From assembly GCA_041395785.1 (NCBI GenBank), contig JAWKZZ010000003.1, forward strand, positions 526,978 to 590,977: 64,000 nucleotides of DNA. Reading direction: 5' to 3'. Source of the stretch: Pseudomonadales bacterium. GTDB lineage: Bacteria > Pseudomonadota > Gammaproteobacteria > Pseudomonadales > UBA7239. The translations under genes were made by a program, and so were the position numbers. Below, in pieces: positions 9,543 to 59,587 of the stretch. The notes beneath the pieces were generated by a model, which saw nothing but the letters and a program-made list of their open reading frames with translations, did not search any database and was not told where the DNA came from. Numbering within the stretch: the first letter of the stretch is position 1; each line of letters opens with the position of its first letter.

Positions 9543-10630
<1,088 letters not shown>

Positions 10631-10631
<1 letters not shown>

Positions 10632-11218
10632 TGGCCACAAAAATTAACCTGCTTCCTTGGCGCGCTGAGCTGCGGGAGCAAAGAAAGAAAGAGTTTCTTG
10701 CTGTGTTGGGAGCAAGCGCGGTTGTCGGGCTGCTTGTTTTCGCAGTTTGGTATATGACGGTCGCCAGCTTGATAGATTTTCAAAAGGAGCGTAACGCAAA
10801 AATTCAAGCCGAAATATCGTTACTTGATAAAAAAGTCACTGAGATTGACGAGTTAAAAAAACAGCGTAACGACATGATTGATAGGATGAAAGTTATCCAG
10901 AGCTTGCAGGGAAATCGACCATTAATCGTGCATATATTTGATGAGTTGGTTGGTAAGTTGCCAGATGGCGTTTTCTTTAAGCGTGCAGAGCGCAAAGGAG
11001 ACAAAATTCTTATCAGTGGCACAGCGGAGTCAAACAACAGGGTGTCGACTTTGATGCGTGACTTGAATAATTCAAAATGGTTAAAGAGCTCTGTGTTGAC
11101 TAAGGTGCAAGCCAACCCATCATTTGGTGATCAGGGAACGGACTTCGATATCAGTGTTGATGTTGTGTTGCCGGAAAGTGATCAAAAAGCTAACGCAAAA
11201 AAAGAGGGTGAAAAATAA
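10631..11218 (+). CDS. pilN: Type IV pilus assembly protein PilN
   Basis: MATKINLLPWR motif, a single TM segment, and a 1-nt overlap with the pilM stop. Confidence 0.9.
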
Positions 11219-11956
11219 ATGTCACTCCAAAATAGCCTAGAAAAACTGCAGAACGATTTCAGTAACTTAGATCCGGAGAATATGGGGGCATGGCCTCTGC
11301 CTGTCAAAATTGTCTGCTGGGCACTTACCGCGGTTATTGTTGTTATTCTTTCATATCAGCTTGTTCTGCGCGATCAGTCTAATGTGCTGAGTCAAGAGGT
11401 GCAAAAAGAGGCAACACTGCGCGCTAGTTTTGAAAGCAGAGTGCAAGAAGCCTCTAATTTGGAGGCGTATAGGGCGCAAATGAAAGAAATGAAGGAGTCA
11501 TTTGAGGCGCTGGTTTTACAGCTGCCCAAGGATACGGAAGTACCTGGATTGTTGGATGATATTTCCAATACAGGGCAGACCAGTGGACTCAATATTGATG
11601 CTATTAAGTTATTGCCAGAGAAAAAAGCGGATTTTTATGTGGAATTGCCAATCGATATCCAGGTGAGTGGTGGATATCATGACTTTGCAACATTTGTCAG
11701 TGGAATTGCGGGCTTGCCACGGATTGTAACCCTGCATGATTTTGTGATTGCTCCTGCTGGCTCCACTAAAGGCGCGACGGATGGCGGCAAGTCTAAAAAC
11801 CAAAATAACGATGATGCCCGTAATAGCGAAGAACTTGCGATGACGATTACTGCAAAAACTTACAGATATGGCGATGTGTCATCTAGTAGTGATGCTGGTG
11901 CTAAGGCTGTTGCCAACAAAAAAGCTGCCAAGAAAGGCAAGGCTGGTGGCAAATGA
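11219..11956 (+). CDS. pilO: Type IV pilus assembly protein PilO (with K-rich C-terminal extension)
   Basis: Assigned by its position between pilN and pilP, an N-terminal TM segment, a coiled segment and a PRIVTLHDF core. It has an extra tail, ANKKAAKKGKAGGK. Confidence 0.85.
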   Translation: MSLQNSLEKLQNDFSNLDPENMGAWPLPVKIVCWALTAVIVVILSYQLVLRDQSNVLSQEVQKEATLRASFESRVQEASNLEAYRAQMKEMKESFEALVLQLPKDTEVPGLLDDISNTGQTSGLNIDAIKLLPEKKADFYVELPIDIQVSGGYHDFATFVSGIAGLPRIVTLHDFVIAPAGSTKGATDGGKSKNQNNDDARNSEELAMTITAKTYRYGDVSSSSDAGAKAVANKKAAKKGKAGGK

Positions 11957-12519
11957 AAATGAGTGGCGCAAAAAAAGTGGGAGTAAAATTCTGTGCGGCG
12001 CTGTGTCTTCCGCTGCTTTTTGCAGGATGCGGCGACAGCGGAATGTCTGACCTTGAAAACTATATGCAAGAGGTGCGGTTGAGACCTGTGCCGCCTATTG
12101 AGCCAATTCCTACATTCCCTCAGTTTGACACTTTTGTGTATAAGGCGGCTGGAAAGCGTAGCCCATTTGAAAAGCCACAAGCACTAGTTGAAATAGAGAT
12201 TGAAGGTGGCAAAGTAACTGGTGGTGCGCTTATTAAGCCAGATGAGCTTCGCCCTAAAGAATATCTTGAGCAATACAATATCAGCTCAATAACTATGGTC
12301 GGCACAGTTACCAAAGATGGCGTGATATGGGGTTTGGTGGACGATGGAACATCTAACATTCATCGTGTGCAAGTGGGTAACTACATGGGGCGTAACCACG
12401 GGAAAATATTCCATATTGATAATGGACGCATTGATATAAAAGAGATTGTGCCTAGTGGCGATAACTTGTGGGTAGAGCGTCCTAAGACACTGCAATTGCG
12501 CGAATCCGCAGAACAATAA
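11953..12519 (+). CDS. pilP: Type IV pilus assembly lipoprotein PilP
   Basis: Lipobox LLFAGCG, ATGA overlap with pilO, and position upstream of pilQ. Confidence 0.85.
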   Translation: MKMSGAKKVGVKFCAALCLPLLFAGCGDSGMSDLENYMQEVRLRPVPPIEPIPTFPQFDTFVYKAAGKRSPFEKPQALVEIEIEGGKVTGGALIKPDELRPKEYLEQYNISSITMVGTVTKDGVIWGLVDDGTSNIHRVQVGNYMGRNHGKIFHIDNGRIDIKEIVPSGDNLWVERPKTLQLRESAEQ

Positions 12520-12591
12520 TTGATCCGGGTAAATAAAATGACACATCAGTTAAATACAACTGGAAAGGAAAGGGGTGGACTTGTGAAAAAT

Positions 12592-14730
12592 ATGAAAAAA
12601 ATCCTGGTGGCAACTTCGCCAATTCTTTTTTCTTTCTTGGCTGTGGCTGCACAAGCCACAACATTACAAAATATTTCATTTGCATCACTGCCTGGTGACA
12701 GATTTGAAGTAAAGATGGACTTTGATGTTAAGCCGTCAGAGCCAAAGGGCTACAACATTGATAAGCCGGCACGCGTTGTCATGGACTTTGAAGGTGTTGA
12801 AAGTGCGCTGAAAGAGAAAAAATACCCACTCTCTTTTGGTAGCGCTAAGAGTGCCAATGTATTGTCTGATGGTGGAAGAACGCGTTTGATTTTGAATATG
12901 ACGCAATTGGAGACCTATAAAACACGGTTTGAAGGCAGCAGCTTCATCATGACCGTTGGTAAGAGCGAAATTCAGGAGGTTAGTAAAAAAGGCGTCAGCT
13001 TGGCTGAGAGAATCACTTCAGATGACTCGGCATATGGTTCTGCAATAAAAGATGTCGACTTCCGCCGTGGTGAAAACGGCGAAGGTAAAGTTGTTATTTC
13101 GATGACAGACTCTAATGTCAATGTAGGTGTTGAAGACACAGGCGGCAAAATTACTGTTAATTTTGGCGGCACGCAGTTACCTGCGTCACTGAGAAGAAAG
13201 CTGGATGTGGTGGATTTCGCGACGCCGGTGCAATCAATATCATCTGATGTTAGTGGTGGTGATGCCGTATTCACTATCAATTCAACCGGCAACTACGATT
13301 ACATGGCGTACCAAACAGACAATCAGTATGTAATCAGTGTTAAGCAATTGTCTGAGAAGGAACAGGAAGAGCGTGCGCAGAAGTTTACTTATATTGGCCA
13401 GAGATTATCACTTAACTTCCAAGATATTCCAGTGCGCTCTGTATTGCAGTTAATTGCCGATTTCACCGATAAGAACTTGGTGGCAAGTGACACAGTAGAA
13501 GGGAAAATTACGCTCCGTCTTGATAATGTACCTTCAGATCAGGCCTTGGATTTGGTGTTGAAGACAAAAGGTCTTGATAAGCGTGAAGTCGGTAATGTCA
13601 TGATGGTTGCACCGGCAGCTGAAATTGCTGCGCGTGAGCGTGAAGAAATTCAAACAGCGAAGCAAATGCGTGAACTTGCACCGATACGCACCGAGTTTTT
13701 GCAGATTTTGTACGCAGATGCTAAGGATGTTTATAAGCTATTTGAAAAATCGGGCGGTGCAAGCGCCGATGGAATGTCAGCAGAGAGTTTGTTGTCATCA
13801 CGAGGCTCGGCTACGCTCGACAGTAGAACTAACTCGATTACAGTCCACGATACAGAAGCCAAAATTCAACAGATTCGTGACTACATCAAACGCATTGACA
13901 TCCCGGTGCGCCAAGTATCTATCGAAGCGCGCATTGTGAAGGCAACTTCTGGCTTCCGTGAAGACTTGGGTGTGATGTGGGGCTTGGATCTGAGTGCAAA
14001 AGATACTTTTGTTAATGGGTCTATTAATAATGTGTTGAGTGGCAATAATGCCCTATTTAGAAACAGAGGCGATAAATCTGGTTCGTATATCAAGCCAAGT
14101 GACCTTGATCTTATCAGCACGCCCACAGGTGCAGATTCCATGGTTGTTGATATGCGCGCCAAGCCAGAAGAAGGCGATCCAGGCTCGTTTTCAATCGGTT
14201 TGCTGGGCAATGATGGCTGGTTGGCTGTTGAGCTCTCGGCATTGGAAAAAACAGGCAAAGGCGAAGTGGTTTCGCAGCCAAAAGTAATTACTGGCGATAA
14301 GCAAAAAGCAGTAATTAAGAGCGGTCAAGAAATTGGTTATCAAGAAGCGAGCTCAAGCGGTGCATCCACTACATCGTTCAAAGAAGCAGTACTGAAATTG
14401 GAGGTTACTCCACAAATTACGCCAGATGATCGCATTATCATGGATTTGGTTATCAACAAAGATAGCATTGAAAGTTTTGTTGCGGGTATTCCTGTTATTG
14501 CTACTACGGAATTGACCACACGCGTTTTGGTTAACAACGGCGAAACAGTTGTACTGGGTGGTATTTTTGAGAATGAAAAGGTTGACCAGGTGAAGAAAAT
14601 CCCATTCTTGGGTGACTTGCCACTGGTAGGGCGCTTCTTCAGAAACACCTCACAAAGTGATACCAAAACAGAATTGTTGATCTTCGTAACCCCGCGCTTG
14701 CTGCAGGATCCTCTTGCTGATAAGCGTTAA
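12592..14730 (+). CDS. pilQ: Type IV pilus secretin PilQ
   Basis: ORF 12520..14730. Start chosen at MKKILVATSPILFSFLAVAAQA (signal peptide). It has an AMIN-like repeat (LPGDRFEVKMDF...PARVVMDF) and the secretin C-terminus (VPFLGDLPLVGRFF, ELLIFVTPRLL). Confidence 0.92.
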   Translation: MKKILVATSPILFSFLAVAAQATTLQNISFASLPGDRFEVKMDFDVKPSEPKGYNIDKPARVVMDFEGVESALKEKKYPLSFGSAKSANVLSDGGRTRLILNMTQLETYKTRFEGSSFIMTVGKSEIQEVSKKGVSLAERITSDDSAYGSAIKDVDFRRGENGEGKVVISMTDSNVNVGVEDTGGKITVNFGGTQLPASLRRKLDVVDFATPVQSISSDVSGGDAVFTINSTGNYDYMAYQTDNQYVISVKQLSEKEQEERAQKFTYIGQRLSLNFQDIPVRSVLQLIADFTDKNLVASDTVEGKITLRLDNVPSDQALDLVLKTKGLDKREVGNVMMVAPAAEIAAREREEIQTAKQMRELAPIRTEFLQILYADAKDVYKLFEKSGGASADGMSAESLLSSRGSATLDSRTNSITVHDTEAKIQQIRDYIKRIDIPVRQVSIEARIVKATSGFREDLGVMWGLDLSAKDTFVNGSINNVLSGNNALFRNRGDKSGSYIKPSDLDLISTPTGADSMVVDMRAKPEEGDPGSFSIGLLGNDGWLAVELSALEKTGKGEVVSQPKVITGDKQKAVIKSGQEIGYQEASSSGASTTSFKEAVLKLEVTPQITPDDRIIMDLVINKDSIESFVAGIPVIATTELTTRVLVNNGETVVLGGIFENEKVDQVKKIPFLGDLPLVGRFFRNTSQSDTKTELLIFVTPRLLQDPLADKR

Positions 14731-52645: not shown

Positions 52646-53311
52646 CTAATGCGACAAGAATCCGTGTTCTGCCAGAAAGCTTGCCGTCAATTTTTCAGCA
52701 CTGTTTTTCTCTGCAGCCTTGTCGCCCAACAGTAAACGCTCCAAGTAGCGGGCAACGACATCCACTTCCAGGTTGACCTTGGTGCCGGTTTTGTATTCAC
52801 CAAACAGGGTTTTTTGTTGCGTGTGCGGCACAATATTCAAATCAAATTCGGCACCTTCGACTTGGTTGACGGTGAGGCTCACGCCGTCGACACACACGGA
52901 GCCTTTGTGTGCGATATAGCGCGCCAGCTCTGCCGGTGCGCGCAAGCGGTAGCGAATCGAACGCGCATCGCTGTGGATGTTGACAATTTCACCGACGCCA
53001 TCGACATGCCCGCTGACGATATGGCCACCTAAGCGATCATTTGCGCGCAAGGCTTTTTCTAAATTGACGCGGCTGCCGTTTTTCAACGCGCCCAGTGTGG
53101 TGTGGTTGAGTGTTTCTATCGAAACATCGGCCCAAAAACCGTCACCGGGTAATTCCACAACAGTGAGACAAACGCCGTTGGTGGCGATGCTGTCGCCCAA
53201 GATCACATCGGAAAGATCCAAGCTGGCGGTTTGAATGCGCAAGCGTTTGTCGCCGTGGTGGTTTTCGCTGGCGACCAATTTTCCCACTGCTTGAATAATG
53301 CCGGTAAACAT
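52646..53311 (-). CDS. ribE: Riboflavin synthase (alpha chain)
   Basis: ORF 52646..53380, start chosen at MFTGIIQAVGK, the canonical N-terminus. It has the duplicated lumazine-binding repeat (GDSIATNGVCLTV / GSVCVDGVSLTV). Confidence 0.93.
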   Translation of the reverse strand: MFTGIIQAVGKLVASENHHGDKRLRIQTASLDLSDVILGDSIATNGVCLTVVELPGDGFWADVSIETLNHTTLGALKNGSRVNLEKALRANDRLGGHIVSGHVDGVGEIVNIHSDARSIRYRLRAPAELARYIAHKGSVCVDGVSLTVNQVEGAEFDLNIVPHTQQKTLFGEYKTGTKVNLEVDVVARYLERLLLGDKAAEKNSAEKLTASFLAEHGFLSH

Positions 53312-53324
53312 AAATCGGTTCTCT

Positions 53325-54419
53325 TTAGTGCGTAGTGCGAAGAATAAAACGCCAGTCGTTGCCGATGGCGCGTGCATCAATCATGTGTAACTGATGTGCG
53401 TTTGCCATGTTATCCAGTGGCAAATTGAATAGAGGGCGTGCGCCACTGCCCATCAATTGTGGCGCCATGTAAATCACCAATTCATCGGCTAAATTGTGTT
53501 GCATAAAAGCACCGGCCAATGTTGCGCCAGCTTCCACCAACACTTCGTTGCATTGTCGGCGTGCAAGTTCAACGAGTAATGCGTGTAAGTCGAGATGATT
53601 GTCTTTGCGCGGCAGCGTGCAAGGCGTGATATGTGCAGGCAGTGATGCTGTCGGTGTGAGATTGCTACACCACAACACGGGGGCTGTGTCGACAAAGAAG
53701 GGTGTGTCGAGCGCAACGCGGGCGTGCTGGTCGAGCAACACGCGCAGAGGTTGGCGATGGTTTAGCTGTTGCAGTGCTTCAGGATGTCGCACGGTGAGCC
53801 TAGCGGCATCGTGCAAAACTGTGTCGGCAGTCGTGATAATCGCACAGCTGCGCGCGCGCAAAAACTGCACATCTTCACGCGCCGCGGCGCCGGTAATCCA
53901 CTGCGATTCACCGGAGGCCATCGCGGTGCGGCCATCCAAACTCATCGCCATTTTGATGCGCACAAACGGCAGGTTTTTTTGCATGCGTTTGATAAAGCCG
54001 AGGTTCAATGCGCGAGCTTCTTTTTCTAGCAACGGTCCGTCGACCATAACGCCAGCTTCGCGCAGTTTTTGCAGGCCGCGCCCAGCCACTTGTGGGTTGG
54101 GATCTTGCATGCCGTACACCACGCGCGCAATGCCGGCGGCGATCAGTGCTTCGCAACAGGGGCCGGTTTTGCCGTGGTGCGAGCAGGGTTCTAGCGTGAC
54201 ATAGGCGGTTGCGCCGCGGGCTTTGTCACCCGCTTGTTGCAGGGCATGAATTTCGGCATGGGCTTCGCCCGCTTTGGCGTGCCAGCCTTCAGCGATGCAA
54301 GTGCCCGTGTTGTCGACAATGACGCAACCCACGCGCGGGTTGGGTGGGGTGCTGTACAGGCCGCGCTCCGCCAATTGCAGGGCGCGCGTCATGTGTTGTT
54401 GGTCAGCGTCGGAGAGCAC
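53325..54419 (-). CDS. ribD: Bifunctional diaminohydroxyphosphoribosylaminopyrimidine deaminase / 5-amino-6-(5-phosphoribosylamino)uracil reductase
   Basis: HAEIHAL...TLEPCSHHGKTGPCC (CDA zinc motif) and SLDGRTAMASGESQWITG (reductase). The GTG at 54419, just after the nrdR stop, was chosen as the start. Alternatives are the Met at 54392 or at 54470. Confidence 0.92.
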   Translation of the reverse strand: MLSDADQQHMTRALQLAERGLYSTPPNPRVGCVIVDNTGTCIAEGWHAKAGEAHAEIHALQQAGDKARGATAYVTLEPCSHHGKTGPCCEALIAAGIARVVYGMQDPNPQVAGRGLQKLREAGVMVDGPLLEKEARALNLGFIKRMQKNLPFVRIKMAMSLDGRTAMASGESQWITGAAAREDVQFLRARSCAIITTADTVLHDAARLTVRHPEALQQLNHRQPLRVLLDQHARVALDTPFFVDTAPVLWCSNLTPTASLPAHITPCTLPRKDNHLDLHALLVELARRQCNEVLVEAGATLAGAFMQHNLADELVIYMAPQLMGSGARPLFNLPLDNMANAHQLHMIDARAIGNDWRFILRTTH

Positions 54420-54423
54420 GGCG

Positions 54424-54882
54424 TTAGGTATGTTGCGGTTGCAGTTTGTCAATTTCGGCGCGGAATTCATCGAGATCTTTGAAATCGCGATACACCGAAG
54501 CAAAGCGCACATAAGCCACTTGATCGAGCTTGCGCAATTGCTCCATCACTTGTTCGCCAATGCTGCGCGAGGACAGTTCGCGCTCGCCGGTGGCCTGCAA
54601 TTTGTGTTTGATATGCGTGAGTGCCGATTCAATGTCCTCCATGCTCACTGGGCGTTTTTCCAGTGCTTTTTGCATGCCGGCGCGCAATTTGTGTTCGTCA
54701 AACGGCACGCGCGAACCGTCGCTTTTGATGATGCGCGGCATCAGCAGTTCAGCGATTTCGTAGGTGGTAAAGCGCTCGTGACAGGTGAGGCACTCGCGAC
54801 GACGGCGCACTTGATCGCCTTCAGCAACCAAACGCGAGTCGATAACCTTGGTGTCAGTTTCAGAGCAAAACGGGCAGTGCAT
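54424..54882 (-). CDS. nrdR: Transcriptional repressor NrdR
   Basis: [19 protein letters not shown]...[17 protein letters not shown] (zinc ribbon) plus an ATP-cone. Length 152 aa. Confidence 0.95.
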
Positions 54883-54927: not shown

Positions 54928-55536
54928 ATGCCGACCATGACCGAGACCAGCCATTTTTTTGCCTACCTCAGCAAACTGCGTTGGATCGAGCGCTGGGGGA
55001 TGAAGCGTAACGCCATCCGTGAAAATGTTATGGAGCACAGTTTTGAAGTGGCTGTCGTGGCGCACGCTCTGGGTGAGTTGTACAACCAAAATCATACAGA
55101 GAAATTGGATTTAGGCGTGCTGGTGTTGACCGCTTTGTATCACGATGCTTCAGAAGTGTTGACCGGCGATTTGCCATCGCCGATCAAGTACCACAATGAA
55201 AAAATTCGCGATGCGTACAAAGAAGTAGAGCATGCAGCGGAACGCGAAATGTTGGCGATGCTGCCCAAGCCTTTACAGGCTACTTATGCACCGTTTTTGT
55301 TGTCAGAGCGTGTAGATCCTATTGTTAAACAATTGATTAAAGCCGCTGATATCATCGTGGCGTACACCAAATGCAAAGCGGAAATGGTGGCGGGCAACCC
55401 GGAATTCAGCAAAGCCATGAAAGATATGGAGGAGAAACTGTCGCACATTGCTTTGCCAGAAGTGCGCCAGTTCTGTGAAATGTTTTTGCCGAGCTTTAGT
55501 TTGACGCTGGATGAGTTGATTAAGCCGCAGGCTTGA
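54928..55536 (+). CDS. yfbR: 5'-deoxynucleotidase YfbR (HD domain)
   Basis: SHFFAYLSKLRWIERWGMKRNAIRENVMEHS...LYHDASEVLTGDLPSPIKY is colinear with E. coli YfbR. Confidence 0.88.
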   Translation: MPTMTETSHFFAYLSKLRWIERWGMKRNAIRENVMEHSFEVAVVAHALGELYNQNHTEKLDLGVLVLTALYHDASEVLTGDLPSPIKYHNEKIRDAYKEVEHAAEREMLAMLPKPLQATYAPFLLSERVDPIVKQLIKAADIIVAYTKCKAEMVAGNPEFSKAMKDMEEKLSHIALPEVRQFCEMFLPSFSLTLDELIKPQA

Positions 55537-56554
55537 TTAAAGAGGGCAGTTGCCGCAAATGGGATTGAGTGTGTCTTTTGCATATGTGCTAGTCGAAGTG
55601 CTTGATATTCGTTTCCGTTCCAATACTCACTAAAATTTCCTGTATTAATATTAAATGTCCCATGGTTTGGTTGGGTGCGTGCACAGCAGGGTGTTACATG
55701 TCCTTCGGCGGTGATATGTACGGAGCGATAAGGCCATGCGCATTTACCGATGCGCCGCTTTGGTAATTTATAGCCAACCATGATGCCGCGAAATGCCAAA
55801 CGCCATTGCTGTTTTATGATGGCCTTATGGATTTCCGGTAATTTCAAGAGAGACTTATGTATCCTGTCGGCCGTTGTTTGGTAATCAGGATCTCCGCGCA
55901 CCAGCCAAGTTTTCGACAAAGCCTATGGCCAGATAATCGACGCCCAGATCAATACACAACGAACCCAGCGATGAAAGATTTTTGTAGTTCATCTCAGTGG
56001 TGGTGTTGTGTATTCCTATGATGACGCTGGAGTCACCACGATTCCTTTCTTCCAATAACACTCGCATACCTGTCAGTACTTCATCTAGGCCGACTTTTTC
56101 CATAGGTCGAATTTGCGCGAATTCTTCGGGCTCTGTCGAATCGATGCTGATACCGACTTCATAGACATATTCGTGTATTAGGCGGCGGATTTTTTTCATT
56201 GAGCAACAAGCTGCCGTTGGTGATAATCCATACCTTGATCGAGCGCTCCTTGAGTTTTTTCAAAATAAATTCGATGTCAGGGTGAAGAAATATTTCACCG
56301 AGCCCCGCGAGGCGGATGGTTTTCAGGTCTGGCAGTGTCGTCAGTATCTTGTCGAGAGTCGCTGGTAATAGATCATTTTTTAGGTCGTTAGGATGTAGAC
56401 TGCTGCGTGAACAGGTGCCGCAAGTTGCATTGCAGCGTGTAGTCGCTTCGATCTCGACATGATCCGGCATTGGTGCGAGCAGAGCTGGCTTGTAGCGAAT
56501 CATGCTTGTATAGAGAACAAGCTTGCGAAACTTCCGGTGCAGGCTTCTGAACAT
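55537..56554 (-). pseudogene. Radical SAM / SPASM-domain protein split by three frameshifts
   Basis: Track ORFs 56159..56554 (EATTRCNATCGTCS, a CxxxCxxC motif), 55885..56199 and 55284..55919 (CAWPYRSVHITAEGHVTPCC, SPASM-like) are consecutive pieces of one gene. A fourth frame supplies the expected end, KDTLNPICGNCPL*, with its stop at 55537, abutting the yfbR stop at 55536. The frame changes lie at an A7 run (~56190-56196), near GAAAAC (~55905) and at CAAAAG (~55584). Confidence 0.8.
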
Positions 56555-56568
56555 AAATTTTCCCGCAA

Positions 56569-58137
56569 CTACACAGCTTGTGTACTGGCAATCAATTCAT
56601 GTTCAGCAGTCTTGCTTTTCCTGACTACTTGGTAGTTGGTGCGTGATGGAGTTTGTCCGCGGAATTCATATTGAGGCCAGCGGTCACGAGCGTAATAGCG
56701 TGAAGAAATCTTGGTTGATAGTGGCGGCATGAAAAGAAATTTAAGGACATAGTAAAAATCCCAGAAAATAGCGCCTGTCCTCAATCCGTGTGTAAGCCGC
56801 CGCCAAATAAATTTGGCATTGAATAAAACGGCTCTTTTATAAGCTATTTGAGTGTATTGAGCCACGGTCTCTCGACTGAGGTGGCTGTGTGTAAACAGAG
56901 ATTCATTCGAGTAAGTGTAATAATCATCCCAGTTGTAGGATTGGATAATGCCTTGTGCATGATAACGATTGAACATTTCTGTTCCTGGAAATGCTACGGT
57001 TCTACCAAATTTAATCATTTCCAAGGGTAATTCACTGGCAAAACGGATGGTGTCCTCCATGGTTTCTTCAGTGTCTGCAGCTAGACCAAGCATGAAAAAA
57101 CCACTGGTTTCTAGCTTGCATTTTCTGGCAATTGCCGCAGCCTGTTTGCCCAACTCTATACTTGCTTTTCCTCCTTTGCCAAACGAACGAAGTATTTCGT
57201 CATTACCTGACTCGAAGCCAAAAGAAACGCGGTAACAGCCGGCGCTATACATTTTTTTAAAAAGAGTCTCGTCGGCACTTTCAACGCGGATGCCGTTTGT
57301 ACAAGTCCAGGCGATATTCACGCCGGCAGCAATGATTGCATCACAAACGCGTGTGGCCCATTCTTGGTCTGAAGTGAAAATGTCATCGACCAGAACCGCT
57401 TCGCGAAAGCCGAGAGACTCTAGTTTTTTCAATTCTGCGGCACAGCGTTCCGGAGATTTTTTTCGATAACCTAACGCCATAGTCATCTTGCTGGCGCAGT
57501 AGTCACATTTGTAAACACAGCCGCGTGAAAATTCAACGCTAGCTACTGGTTGATGGCGGGCAAATAGTCGTGAACCGTGTTTCCGATAGATTTCTTTATC
57601 ATACAGTTCCCAGGCGGGTAGTGGTAAGTCATCTAGATTCGCAATAGGTGTGCGCATCCCTGTAAATAGAATTTCTTCGCCGTTTCTGTAGTACAGGCCT
57701 TTAATATCTTTTGGGGGCACACCGTCACAATATTCTGCGAAGGAGATATCAGCTTCGCCGACAAATACGGCATCTAAGTGAGACTCTAATAGCGACTCAC
57801 GCGGCAGTGATGAAACATGAGCGCCGCCGCCAATTATGCGCACAGACGGAAGAATTTCTTTGGCCAATAAACTGATATCGCGTAACTGGTTCATGAGGGG
57901 TGTTGTAGCGGTGATGCCGATCACATCTGGCTTGTAATTGAGAATCTTGTCTTTGACTAGTTCGAAGTTATACGGCGTGTATGACAGATCAAAGATTTCA
58001 ACCTGATGACCGTGCTGCATAGCACTGGCGGCAATGGTGGCTAGGCCGAGCGTGGGAAATACCGGATTGGTGATTGCTCCCTTGCTGCCACTATAGCTGG
58101 GTACATACGATGGGTTGATCAAAAGTACACGCGCCAT
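56569..58137 (-). CDS. B12-binding-domain radical SAM protein (class B rSAM)
   Basis: MARVLLINPS...GLATIAASAMQHGHQVEIFD...DVIGITATTP...IIGGGAHVS is the cobalamin-binding Rossmann pattern. It is followed by FSRGCVYKCDYCAS (CxxxCxxC). Length ~522 aa. Confidence 0.85.
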   Translation of the reverse strand: MARVLLINPSYVPSYSGSKGAITNPVFPTLGLATIAASAMQHGHQVEIFDLSYTPYNFELVKDKILNYKPDVIGITATTPLMNQLRDISLLAKEILPSVRIIGGGAHVSSLPRESLLESHLDAVFVGEADISFAEYCDGVPPKDIKGLYYRNGEEILFTGMRTPIANLDDLPLPAWELYDKEIYRKHGSRLFARHQPVASVEFSRGCVYKCDYCASKMTMALGYRKKSPERCAAELKKLESLGFREAVLVDDIFTSDQEWATRVCDAIIAAGVNIAWTCTNGIRVESADETLFKKMYSAGCYRVSFGFESGNDEILRSFGKGGKASIELGKQAAAIARKCKLETSGFFMLGLAADTEETMEDTIRFASELPLEMIKFGRTVAFPGTEMFNRYHAQGIIQSYNWDDYYTYSNESLFTHSHLSRETVAQYTQIAYKRAVLFNAKFIWRRLTHGLRTGAIFWDFYYVLKFLFMPPLSTKISSRYYARDRWPQYEFRGQTPSRTNYQVVRKSKTAEHELIASTQAV

Positions 58138-58324
58138 TAGCACATACCTGTTTCAGATCGTTTGGAGGCGAATATAATCCACTTCATTTGCAGGGTTTCT
58201 ATCGGGCGGTTTTGATTATTAATTATTGGATTAAGTCTACCACCACTCTAAACCTGCATTACGCTTTGTTCCACCTTTTTGCAGCTGAGATGGCGGAAGT
58301 TTCTCCCAGTGTTATAACAAATGC

Positions 58325-59587
58325 TCAGCGATACACTGGATACTTCGCACACAGCGCTGACACTTTTTCGCGCACAGCGCTGATAGTTGCTTCGGCATCG
58401 CCTTTTTCCATCGCGTCAAAAATATCGCAAATCCAGTTGGCGAGTTCGCGGCATTCTGCTTCGCCAAAGCCGCGTGTGGTGCAGGCCGGTGTGCCGATGC
58501 GGATACCGGAAGTCACCATCGGTGGGCGCGGGTCGTTCGGTACGGCATTTTTGTTGACGGTGATATGCGCTTGGCCGAGCGCAGCATCCGCTTCTTTGCC
58601 GGTGATGTTTTTATCGATCAGTGACAACAAGAACAAATGGTTTTCTGTGCCGCCGGATACCACTTGATAGCCGCGAGCCATCACGGTGGCGGCCATCGCT
58701 TTGGCATTGGTGATCACTTGTTGTTGATAAGTTTTGAACGCGGGTTGCAGTGCTTCTTGGAAGCACACCGCTTTGGCGGCGATGACATGCATCAGCGGGC
58801 CGCCTTGTTGCCCAGGGAAAACAGCGGAGTTCAGTTTCTTTTCCAATTCTTCGTTTTTGCGCGCAAGGATCAAACCGCCACGAGGGCCACGCAGGGTTTT
58901 GTGTGTGGTGGTGGTGACCACATCGGCAAACGGCACAGGGTTGGGGTAGAGGCCAGCGGCGATCAAGCCGGCGACATGCGCCATATCGACAAACAAATAC
59001 GCGCCCACTTTGTCGGCAATTTCGCGAAAGCGCGGGAAGTCTAAAATACCGGAGTACGCAGAAAAACCCGCGACGATCATTTTGGGTTTGTGTTCGAGTG
59101 CGAGGCGCTCTAGTTCGGCGTAGTCAATCAGGCCGGTGGCTGGATCCAAGCCGTATTGCGCAGATTTGTAGATCTTGCCGGAAAAATTGACACCGGCGCC
59201 GTGGGTGAGGTGGCCGCCGTGGGCGAGTGACATGCCGAGTACGGTGTCGCCCGGTTGGCACAGCGCCATGTAAACCGCTGCATTGGCTTGGCTGCCGGAG
59301 TGCGGCTGCACATTGGCGTAATCGGCGCCGAATAATTGTTTGGCGCGATCGATGGCGAGTTGCTCCACAACATCCACATATTCGCAGCCGCCGTAGTAGC
59401 GTTTGCTGGGGTAGCCCTCGGCGTATTTGTTGGTCAGTTCGGAGCCTTGCGCTGCCATTACCGCAGGACTGGCGTAGTTTTCAGAAGCGATCAGCTCGAT
59501 GTGATCCTCTTGTCGTTTTTGTTCGCTCTGAATGGCGCTCCAGAGGTCAGGATCGAACGAGGCGAGGGTGACATCTTTGCTAAACAT
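58325..59587 (-). CDS. glyA: Serine hydroxymethyltransferase
   Basis: ORF 58325..59632, start chosen at [16 protein letters not shown]. It reads [20 protein letters not shown] and [14 protein letters not shown] (PLP lysine). Confidence 0.96.

Follow-up and report, generated by a model that had tools for sequence, protein, structure and literature searches.

What do two adjacent radical S-adenosylmethionine (SAM) genes do between glyA and the yfbR-nrdR-ribD-ribE genes of a wastewater Pseudomonadales bacterium, and how long have they stood there? We addressed this question in a window of 64,000 nucleotides (contig JAWKZZ010000003.1, forward-strand positions 526,978 to 590,977, assembly GCA_041395785.1; coordinates are those of the window unless a locus is named). 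The pair comprises a predicted B12-binding class-B radical-SAM gene (56569..58137, minus strand; 522 residues, intact) and a partner radical-SAM gene with a truncated-SPASM, twitch-like C-terminus (55537..56554, minus strand; 338 codons long in relatives but spread over three frames in the window). A preliminary description of the window, made from the sequence alone, had recorded both genes and their coordinates (55537-58187) accurately. Both proteins are uncharacterized new members of known enzyme superfamilies, and we lean toward the view that they form a two-gene accessory operon, in which a class-B and a BtrN-like radical-SAM enzyme would act on a carbohydrate moiety.

Assignment of the two enzymes

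The B12 enzyme matched PF02310 at 65.8 bits (cut-off 32.1) and PF04055 at 63.9 bits. Its cluster motif reads CVYKCDYC, with C209, C213, and C216 invariant in 35 homologues, and its predicted architecture, in which a radical-SAM core with CxxxCxxC comes after an N-terminal B12-binding domain, is the one by which class B is defined. The function had previously been left unassigned, and placement with hidden Markov models left it so: neither radical-SAM protein reached the cut-off of any NCBIfam model. The best NCBIfam matches of the B12 enzyme were HpnJ (164.9 bits, cut-off 577.6) and BchE (148.4 bits, cut-off 481.35), with a ladderane-type lipid B12 radical-SAM family also among the top matches (95 bits, cut-off 360). 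We rejected its assignment as an HpnJ or BchE equivalog, both scores lying far under the curated cut-offs. HpnJ and BchE are non-methylating class-B enzymes, and HpnJ has been proposed to contract the sugar ring of hopanoid-linked glucosamine rather than to methylate it (PMC9204698). The best solved structure, identified by sequence profile, was AprD4 (PDB 6FD2, 7.7e-22). A large protein collection contains more than 1000 homologues of it. With over 1000 sequences at an identity of about 60%, the family extends across more than 10 phyla, and members 55–60% identical range from Pelagibacter to Nitrospina, Elusimicrobia, and Binatia.

The partner carries the radical-SAM cluster motif CNATCGTC and matched the SPASM domain (PF13186) at 35.8 bits. 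Its invariant cysteines are C41, C45, and C48, joined toward the C-terminus by C271, C289, C290, C333, and C336; only two residues follow the final CxxC. Because it ends directly after this CxxC, the partner lacks the full seven-cysteine SPASM motif. Membership of the full SPASM class (seven-cysteine motif, two auxiliary 4Fe-4S clusters) was rejected, since the partner has five invariant C-terminal cysteines. The spacing follows the twitch pattern, C-x(~18)-C ... CxxC on the C-terminal side of the core, which predicts one probable auxiliary cluster. Sequence-profile comparison returned BtrN as the best solved structure (PDB 4M7T, 1.5e-12).

An AlphaFold2 (AF2) model of the partner had a mean pLDDT of 90. 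A Foldseek search with this model ranked SuiB, CteB, and SkfB, which are maturases of ribosomally synthesized and post-translationally modified peptides (RiPPs), together with the sugar enzymes DesII, BtrN, and BlsE; the modeled fold therefore does not discriminate between peptide and sugar enzymes, and says only "SPASM/twitch radical SAM". The partner family is small, with 53 matches and 39 full-length clusters at 49% identity or more, followed by a drop to 36% or less. A single-linkage cluster had placed the partner in 12 loci; direct BLAST showed that only the Pseudomonadales copies are orthologous, the others being at most 28% identical, and this wider recurrence was dismissed.

Genomic context of homologues and the probable substrate

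We retrieved 80 genome loci with homologues of the B12 enzyme (mostly 48–67% identical), clustered the neighboring open reading frames (ORFs), and counted neighbors over 74 loci. These loci span Alpha-, Gamma-, and Zetaproteobacteria, Nitrospinota, Nitrospirota, Elusimicrobiota, Binatia, Bdellovibrionota, Acidobacteriota, and others. A GT2 glycosyltransferase was the immediate neighbor of the B12-enzyme homologue in 20 of the 74 loci, and at least one glycan-type gene lay within three genes of it in 48 of the 74. Recurrent neighbors, GT2 among them, included AsnB-type amidotransferases, a GMC-like flavoprotein/oxidoreductase, and GalE-like and short SDR epimerases. We also encountered SAM methyltransferases, MBOAT proteins, a carbamoyltransferase, a DegT aminotransferase, GT4 and PMT/ArnT-like GT-C proteins, as well as heparinase II/III-like and UbiA (decaprenyl-phosphate phosphoribosyltransferase-like) proteins. 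The nearest unpaired homologues of the B12 enzyme (L015:3457-9082 and L016:1978-7644) come after two sugar-type SDR genes. These same two homologues adjoin convergent efp and earP, the latter encoding the EF-P arginine rhamnosyltransferase.

A homologue of the partner, 51% identical, was found in a large cluster (L094:6207-19023) beside a different, Sden_1168-like, B12 radical-SAM enzyme. This cluster also encodes three methyltransferases, an NTP-transferase, an SDR epimerase, a GT2, a UbiA protein, and a FAD_binding_4 protein, a layout that resembles a polyprenyl-phosphate-sugar pathway. Judged by gene content, the consistent theme of the homologue contexts is glycan or polyprenyl-phosphate-sugar chemistry. 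Our literature search found no characterized glycan cluster that combines a B12 radical-SAM enzyme with GT2 and AsnB.

Tailoring of a lipid or cofactor without a sugar, such as a hopanoid or other membrane lipid, quinone, or tetrapyrrole that is methylated or cyclized, would account for the identity of the top NCBIfam matches (HpnJ, BchE, and the ladderane-type family), for the UbiA protein and CMAS-like methyltransferase of L094, and for the automatic JGI label on the B12 enzyme, "anaerobic Mg-protoporphyrin IX monomethyl ester cyclase". The pair also stands alone, as the genes of hopanoid methylases do. However, the match scores are far under their cut-offs (165 against 578, 148 against 481, and 95 against 360), the JGI label is an automatic transfer, and glycosyltransferases dominate beside the homologues examined, where we found no hopanoid, chlorophyll, or quinone genes. 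We regard this explanation as unlikely.

A carbohydrate substrate is inferred because glycan genes lie near the homologues (48/74) and because the best solved structures are AprD4 and BtrN; a sugar or sugar-lipid is thus our best inference from these neighbors and structures. Several observations weigh against it. The fold search ranked RiPP maturases as high as sugar enzymes. The partner is unlinked to the B12 family outside the Pseudomonadales clade, and the L094 partner sits beside a different B12 enzyme. For expression there is one 191-nt contig from a wastewater metatranscriptome (X25), a weak hint of transcription in situ that is 100% identical to the B12 gene over 56935-57125. Furthermore, since no glycan genes lie beside the pair in the window lineage, the carbohydrate assignment draws on distant homologues and on identities of ~14–20% to AprD4 and BtrN.

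If the substrate is a carbohydrate, the two enzymes would act on it in sequence, whether as a nucleotide-sugar, a polyprenyl-phosphate-linked sugar, or a sugar on a lipid or glycan. Hydrogen abstraction by the twitch-type enzyme would lead to oxidation or epimerization of a sugar carbon, as in BtrN, and the B12 enzyme would C-methylate the substrate by radical chemistry or rearrange it, for instance through the ring contraction proposed for HpnJ. The cell envelope would in this way receive a decoration that varies between strains. This enzyme-by-enzyme chemistry, and the variable decoration with it, is speculative.

Short upstream ORFs and the possibility of a peptide substrate

Class-B and SPASM radical-SAM enzymes are commonly paired in RiPP clusters, and the preliminary description took this pairing as a clue to function. 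On that basis, a ribosomal peptide would be the common substrate, methylated by the B12 enzyme and cross-linked or epimerized by the SPASM enzyme. Besides the high fold ranks of SuiB, CteB, and SkfB, weak NCBIfam matches to ApyD, AlbA, and WgkB could be read in the same way, as could a 16-codon ORF (58187..58137, minus strand; MKWIIFASKRSETGMC) whose last residue is Cys and which ends in TAATG, its stop abutting the B12 start codon.

We compared this ORF among relatives, and its peptide was conserved only in L008, the relative 95% identical in DNA. L001 has in its place a 12-codon ORF, unrelated in sequence but likewise overlapping through TAATG (L001:9961-10003), and L010 and L092 have neither. 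As the short peptides are not conserved, any role would be in translational coupling rather than as a product. No conserved precursor gene was found beside the pair, and the interval between glyA and yfbR leaves no space for a further ORF. A RiPP recognition element was detected neither in Pfam scans, which returned radical-SAM and SPASM domains only, nor in the structure model, which shows a single N-terminal helix. No leader protease or exporter was present in the three genomic contexts examined, so that the earlier statement that no obvious precursor, transporter, or protease is present holds at the locus and in these three contexts. The partner, moreover, has five rather than seven auxiliary cysteines. 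With no conserved precursor, and with neighborhoods and closest solved structures pointing to carbohydrates, the pairing lost its force as a clue, and we consider a peptide substrate very improbable.

Distribution, gain, and loss of the pair

We then come to the age of the pair at this site. It was found at the identical glyA/yfbR position in at least five related Pseudomonadales lineages, at 71–95% DNA identity. The arrangement glyA, B12 gene, 338-residue partner, convergent yfbR, nrdR, ribD, ribE recurs in L001-L004, L008-L014, L096, L098, and L100; DNA identity to the window over the pair is 95% in L008, 79% in L010 and L011, and 71% in L001. Intact 338-residue orthologues of the partner were identified in L008, L010, L014, and L001. 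The closest homologues of the B12 protein (98, 89, 86, and 72–80% identical) derive from wastewater, activated-sludge, and other metagenomes, and the named records with the pair are "uncultured Pseudomonadales bacterium" and "Cellvibrionales bacterium UBA2034". Linkage of the two genes is tight: in the window 14 nt separate them, and in L001 and L092 the stop codon of the first overlaps the start codon of the second.

Three states were observed at the site: both genes, partner only, and neither. In the two partner-only loci, L093 and L097, about 135 bp stand in place of ~1.8 kb that elsewhere holds the B12 gene and ~95 nt at the 5' end of the partner. The loci come from strains of the same species as L001; the flanks of L093 are 95–99% identical to those of L001, and the lost region corresponds to L093:8996-9131 against L001:9840-11660. 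The partner of L093 and L097 has a new N-terminus, is 350-351 residues long, and follows glyA directly, overlapping its end; this longer form occurs in several protein clusters (P0140-P0146). In the empty locus, L099 (64% GC), only 9 nt lie between the stop of glyA and that of yfbR, and neither radical-SAM gene is present there; the flanking proteins are as similar to those of the window as are those of L001. In L092, the pair lies in an unrelated neighborhood, between yjdM and a cold-shock gene.

The two L099 stops fall inside a short palindrome (L099:2190-2212, GCCTGACGCCCGGCGTCAGC), which could be a shared bidirectional terminator.

In the tree of the B12 enzyme, a quick tree with a midpoint root, every copy paired with a 338-residue partner fell into one clade (SH-aLRT 95). 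This clade lies within a gammaproteobacterial group (support 100) nested among alphaproteobacterial (Rhodospirillales) sequences. Measured against L008, the B12 gene had a ratio of non-synonymous to synonymous substitution rates (dN/dS) of 0.10 and the partner one of 0.036; both genes are under purifying selection.

The persistence of the pair at the same site down to 71% identity, its gain/loss polymorphism, and its occurrence at another locus together indicate an old accessory module and not a recent island. Comparison of the loci thus suggests that the pair was acquired once by an ancestor of a wastewater/freshwater Pseudomonadales group (Cellvibrionales-type), and has since been inherited at the site mostly vertically; across strains, it appears to have been repeatedly lost in part or whole, or moved. 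The preliminary description was therefore right to treat the pair as an accessory insert in the glyA / yfbR-nrdR-ribD-ribE block, given the empty L099 and the partner-only L093 and L097. Insertion as a recent event, by contrast, disagrees with the shared site at 71% DNA identity and with purifying selection. Neither is the pair a conserved core feature with an assigned function: it is polymorphic at the site, and no NCBIfam model matched at its cut-off. Of the marks of a genomic islet, an empty site and presence/absence polymorphism were found; mobility genes and flanking repeats were not.

Frameshifts in the partner gene

We performed a detailed investigation of the partner gene, which in the window is read in three frames through single-base indels of +1, +1, and -1 relative to intact orthologues (all on the minus strand). 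The first is A7 at 56190..56196, against A6 in relatives and near-identical wastewater contigs; the second is TT at 55907..55908, against a single T elsewhere; and the third is A4 at 55576..55579, against A5 elsewhere. Four contigs more than 99% identical to the window (X1, X3, X6, and X9, from four wastewater runs in two studies) lacked the indels wherever they covered them, and the frameshifted allele was carried by no public run among those compared. Over 24001-64000, comparison of the window with these contigs and X12 revealed no other indel and six positions with a single-nucleotide polymorphism (SNP). Five of the six were private to single runs, whereas the SNP at 56099 was common to every run covering that position. 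The window-specific differences, namely the three indels and the SNP at 56099, all fall inside a 617-bp patch (55580-56196).

When the frame was restored by projection onto L008, the partner showed 6 non-synonymous and 43 synonymous differences; the resulting dN/dS of 0.036 indicates that there was no period of relaxed selection. This value and the intact near-identical contigs rule out a long-standing pseudogene or decay of the lineage. A general long-read error or an error-prone assembly is likewise ruled out, no other indel having been found in 40 kb. The SPASM partner had been described as decaying, a claim that does not survive the restriction of the frameshifts to the window sequence. 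As judged from the near-identical contigs, the lineage as a whole appears to keep both genes intact, and a "pseudogene" call for the partner is doubtful.

For the frameshifts themselves, we give slight preference to a read-sized patch of poor sequence; the chance that they reflect a single recent mutational event falls just short of even. In the latter direction, the module could be truly dead in the source strain, with three real frameshifts that arose together, for example from one error-prone repair patch or by selection in culture, and with the B12 gene an orphan heading for loss. The window is otherwise clean, with the other genes (~60) all intact and no other indel against wild contigs over 40 kb, and related strains do shed parts of the module, the B12 gene being deleted in L093/L097 and both genes absent in L099. 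However, three indels and one SNP in 617 bp, against nothing else shared over ~40 kb, is far above neutral decay; the dN/dS speaks against relaxed selection; and no public run carries the allele. In addition, all indels are changes of homopolymer length in a read-sized patch, as is typical of a low-coverage or single-read stretch. A dead module is, in our estimate, somewhat less probable than the opposite.

A bolder and rather improbable reading would take the 617-bp frameshift cluster as a real inactivation in a single event. The pair would then be a self-sufficient two-enzyme module for an undescribed radical modification of a common envelope sugar or a lipid-linked one, for example by contracting the ring to a carbocycle or placing a methyl group on an unactivated carbon, and would be switched on and off between otherwise near-clonal wastewater strains, perhaps under phage or predator pressure.

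Gene layout and base composition

On the minus strand, the genes run in the order glyA, a 187-nt spacer, the B12 gene, a 14-nt spacer, and the partner gene. Downstream of the partner lie the convergent yfbR (plus strand) and then nrdR-ribD-ribE (minus strand). The upstream flank, glyA (58325..59587, minus), encodes serine hydroxymethyltransferase (NF000586, 665 bits). The downstream flank, yfbR (54928..55536, plus), encodes a 5'-deoxynucleotidase (NF003009, 256 bits; PF12917) and has its stop 1 nt away from that of the partner gene. In the nrdR-ribD-ribE block (52646..54882, minus), nrdR was identified with TIGR00244 (227 bits), and ribD and ribE by their translations and synteny with L001. 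Both radical-SAM genes are co-directional with glyA, nrdR, ribD, and ribE, and yfbR alone is opposed. The earlier gene order thus stands insofar as yfbR and the radical-SAM pair lie between glyA and nrdR, with the correction that yfbR is convergent and does not belong to the co-directional string.

We place the start of the B12 gene at ATG 58137 (MARVLLINPSY) rather than at the GTG 58143 of the mechanical ORF list, because every relative begins MARVLLINPSY. The spacer between glyA and the B12 gene (58138..58324, minus) contains the 16-codon ORF, whose TAA overlaps the B12 ATG. Promoter and terminator scans of this spacer stayed at background, with nothing convincing; in view of the missing terminator, co-transcription of the pair with glyA is possible. 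As previously reported, neither integrase nor transposase was found, and repeat scans of the flanks gave chance-level matches only. Within the 3' end of glyA itself, a 22-nt tandem direct repeat was observed (58344-58388; 86% identical, spacing 23 nt).

The segment had been called clearly more AT-rich than its flanks by eye, and we computed windowed GC content and GC at third codon positions (GC3). The segment has a GC content of 0.461, compared with a mean of 0.496 for the window as a whole (sd 0.023 among stretches of equal length), which places it at the 6th percentile; the flanks range from 0.50 to 0.60 and the pair is at about 0.46. The B12 gene has a GC3 of 0.44, which is 1.2 sd under the mean of 51 ORFs (0.515 ± 0.064). 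The contrast looks strong mainly because the adjacent housekeeping genes are GC3-rich (0.59–0.64), with glyA, nrdR, and ribD at 0.61–0.64. GC is lowest in the window (0.43–0.46) over 9564-14730, where the type IV pilus genes pilMNOPQ, a core operon, precede aroK-aroB; as the native pilMNOPQ genes are lower in GC than the pair, composition alone is no decisive mark of foreign origin. In L001, L010, L014, and L096 the pair is 2–9 GC points under its flanks, which is not so at the other site in L092. The AT-richness is therefore real but modest: lower than the flanks, as stated, and within the range of native core genes.

Significance

The B12-enzyme family is conserved, widely transferred, and without a named NCBIfam model. 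The minimal two-gene version in a cultivable-type gammaproteobacterium would offer a handy entry to the substrate of this widespread orphan B12 radical-SAM family, and the natural series of both genes, one, or none at the locus could serve comparative envelope chemistry. In all other respects the accessory operon is an ordinary one, and the "pseudogene" label should not be propagated without a check of the reads.

Comparison with known systems

We compared the pair with four known systems. The SPASM peptide maturases (SuiB, CteB, AlbA, and PqqE) share with the partner a Pfam SPASM match and gave top Foldseek TM-scores of 0.6–0.7; the partner differs in having neither the seven-cysteine motif, nor a RiPP recognition domain, nor a precursor gene.

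HpnJ (TIGR03471), which functions in hopanoid cyclitol-ether formation, is the best NCBIfam match of the B12 enzyme (3e-48, residues 76-452), and B12-binding and radical-SAM domains make up both proteins. The gene contexts are also alike, hpnI-hpnJ lying beside a GT2 as B12-enzyme homologues adjoin GT2 in 20 of 74 loci. The window B12 protein, however, is 522 residues long with a conserved C-terminal extension, and no hopanoid genes were seen in the contexts examined.

AprD4, a diol dehydratase of the radical-SAM type from apramycin biosynthesis, takes a sugar as its substrate, and its radical-SAM core aligns with residues 161-399 of the B12 enzyme. The alignment is confined to the core. The N-terminal domain of AprD4 does not use cobalamin, whereas the B12-enzyme family matches PF02310 at 66 bits.

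BtrN, the twitch dehydrogenase of butirosin, differs from the partner in sequence (identity about 14%) and in length (250 residues, against 338 in the window-type partner), and the partner has an extra helical insert (model residues 224-253) and the additional invariant cysteine C290. Nevertheless, the core and the auxiliary-cluster domain of the two proteins align, the C...(x17-18)...C...CxxC spacing is equal, and the substrate of BtrN is an aminocyclitol or sugar.

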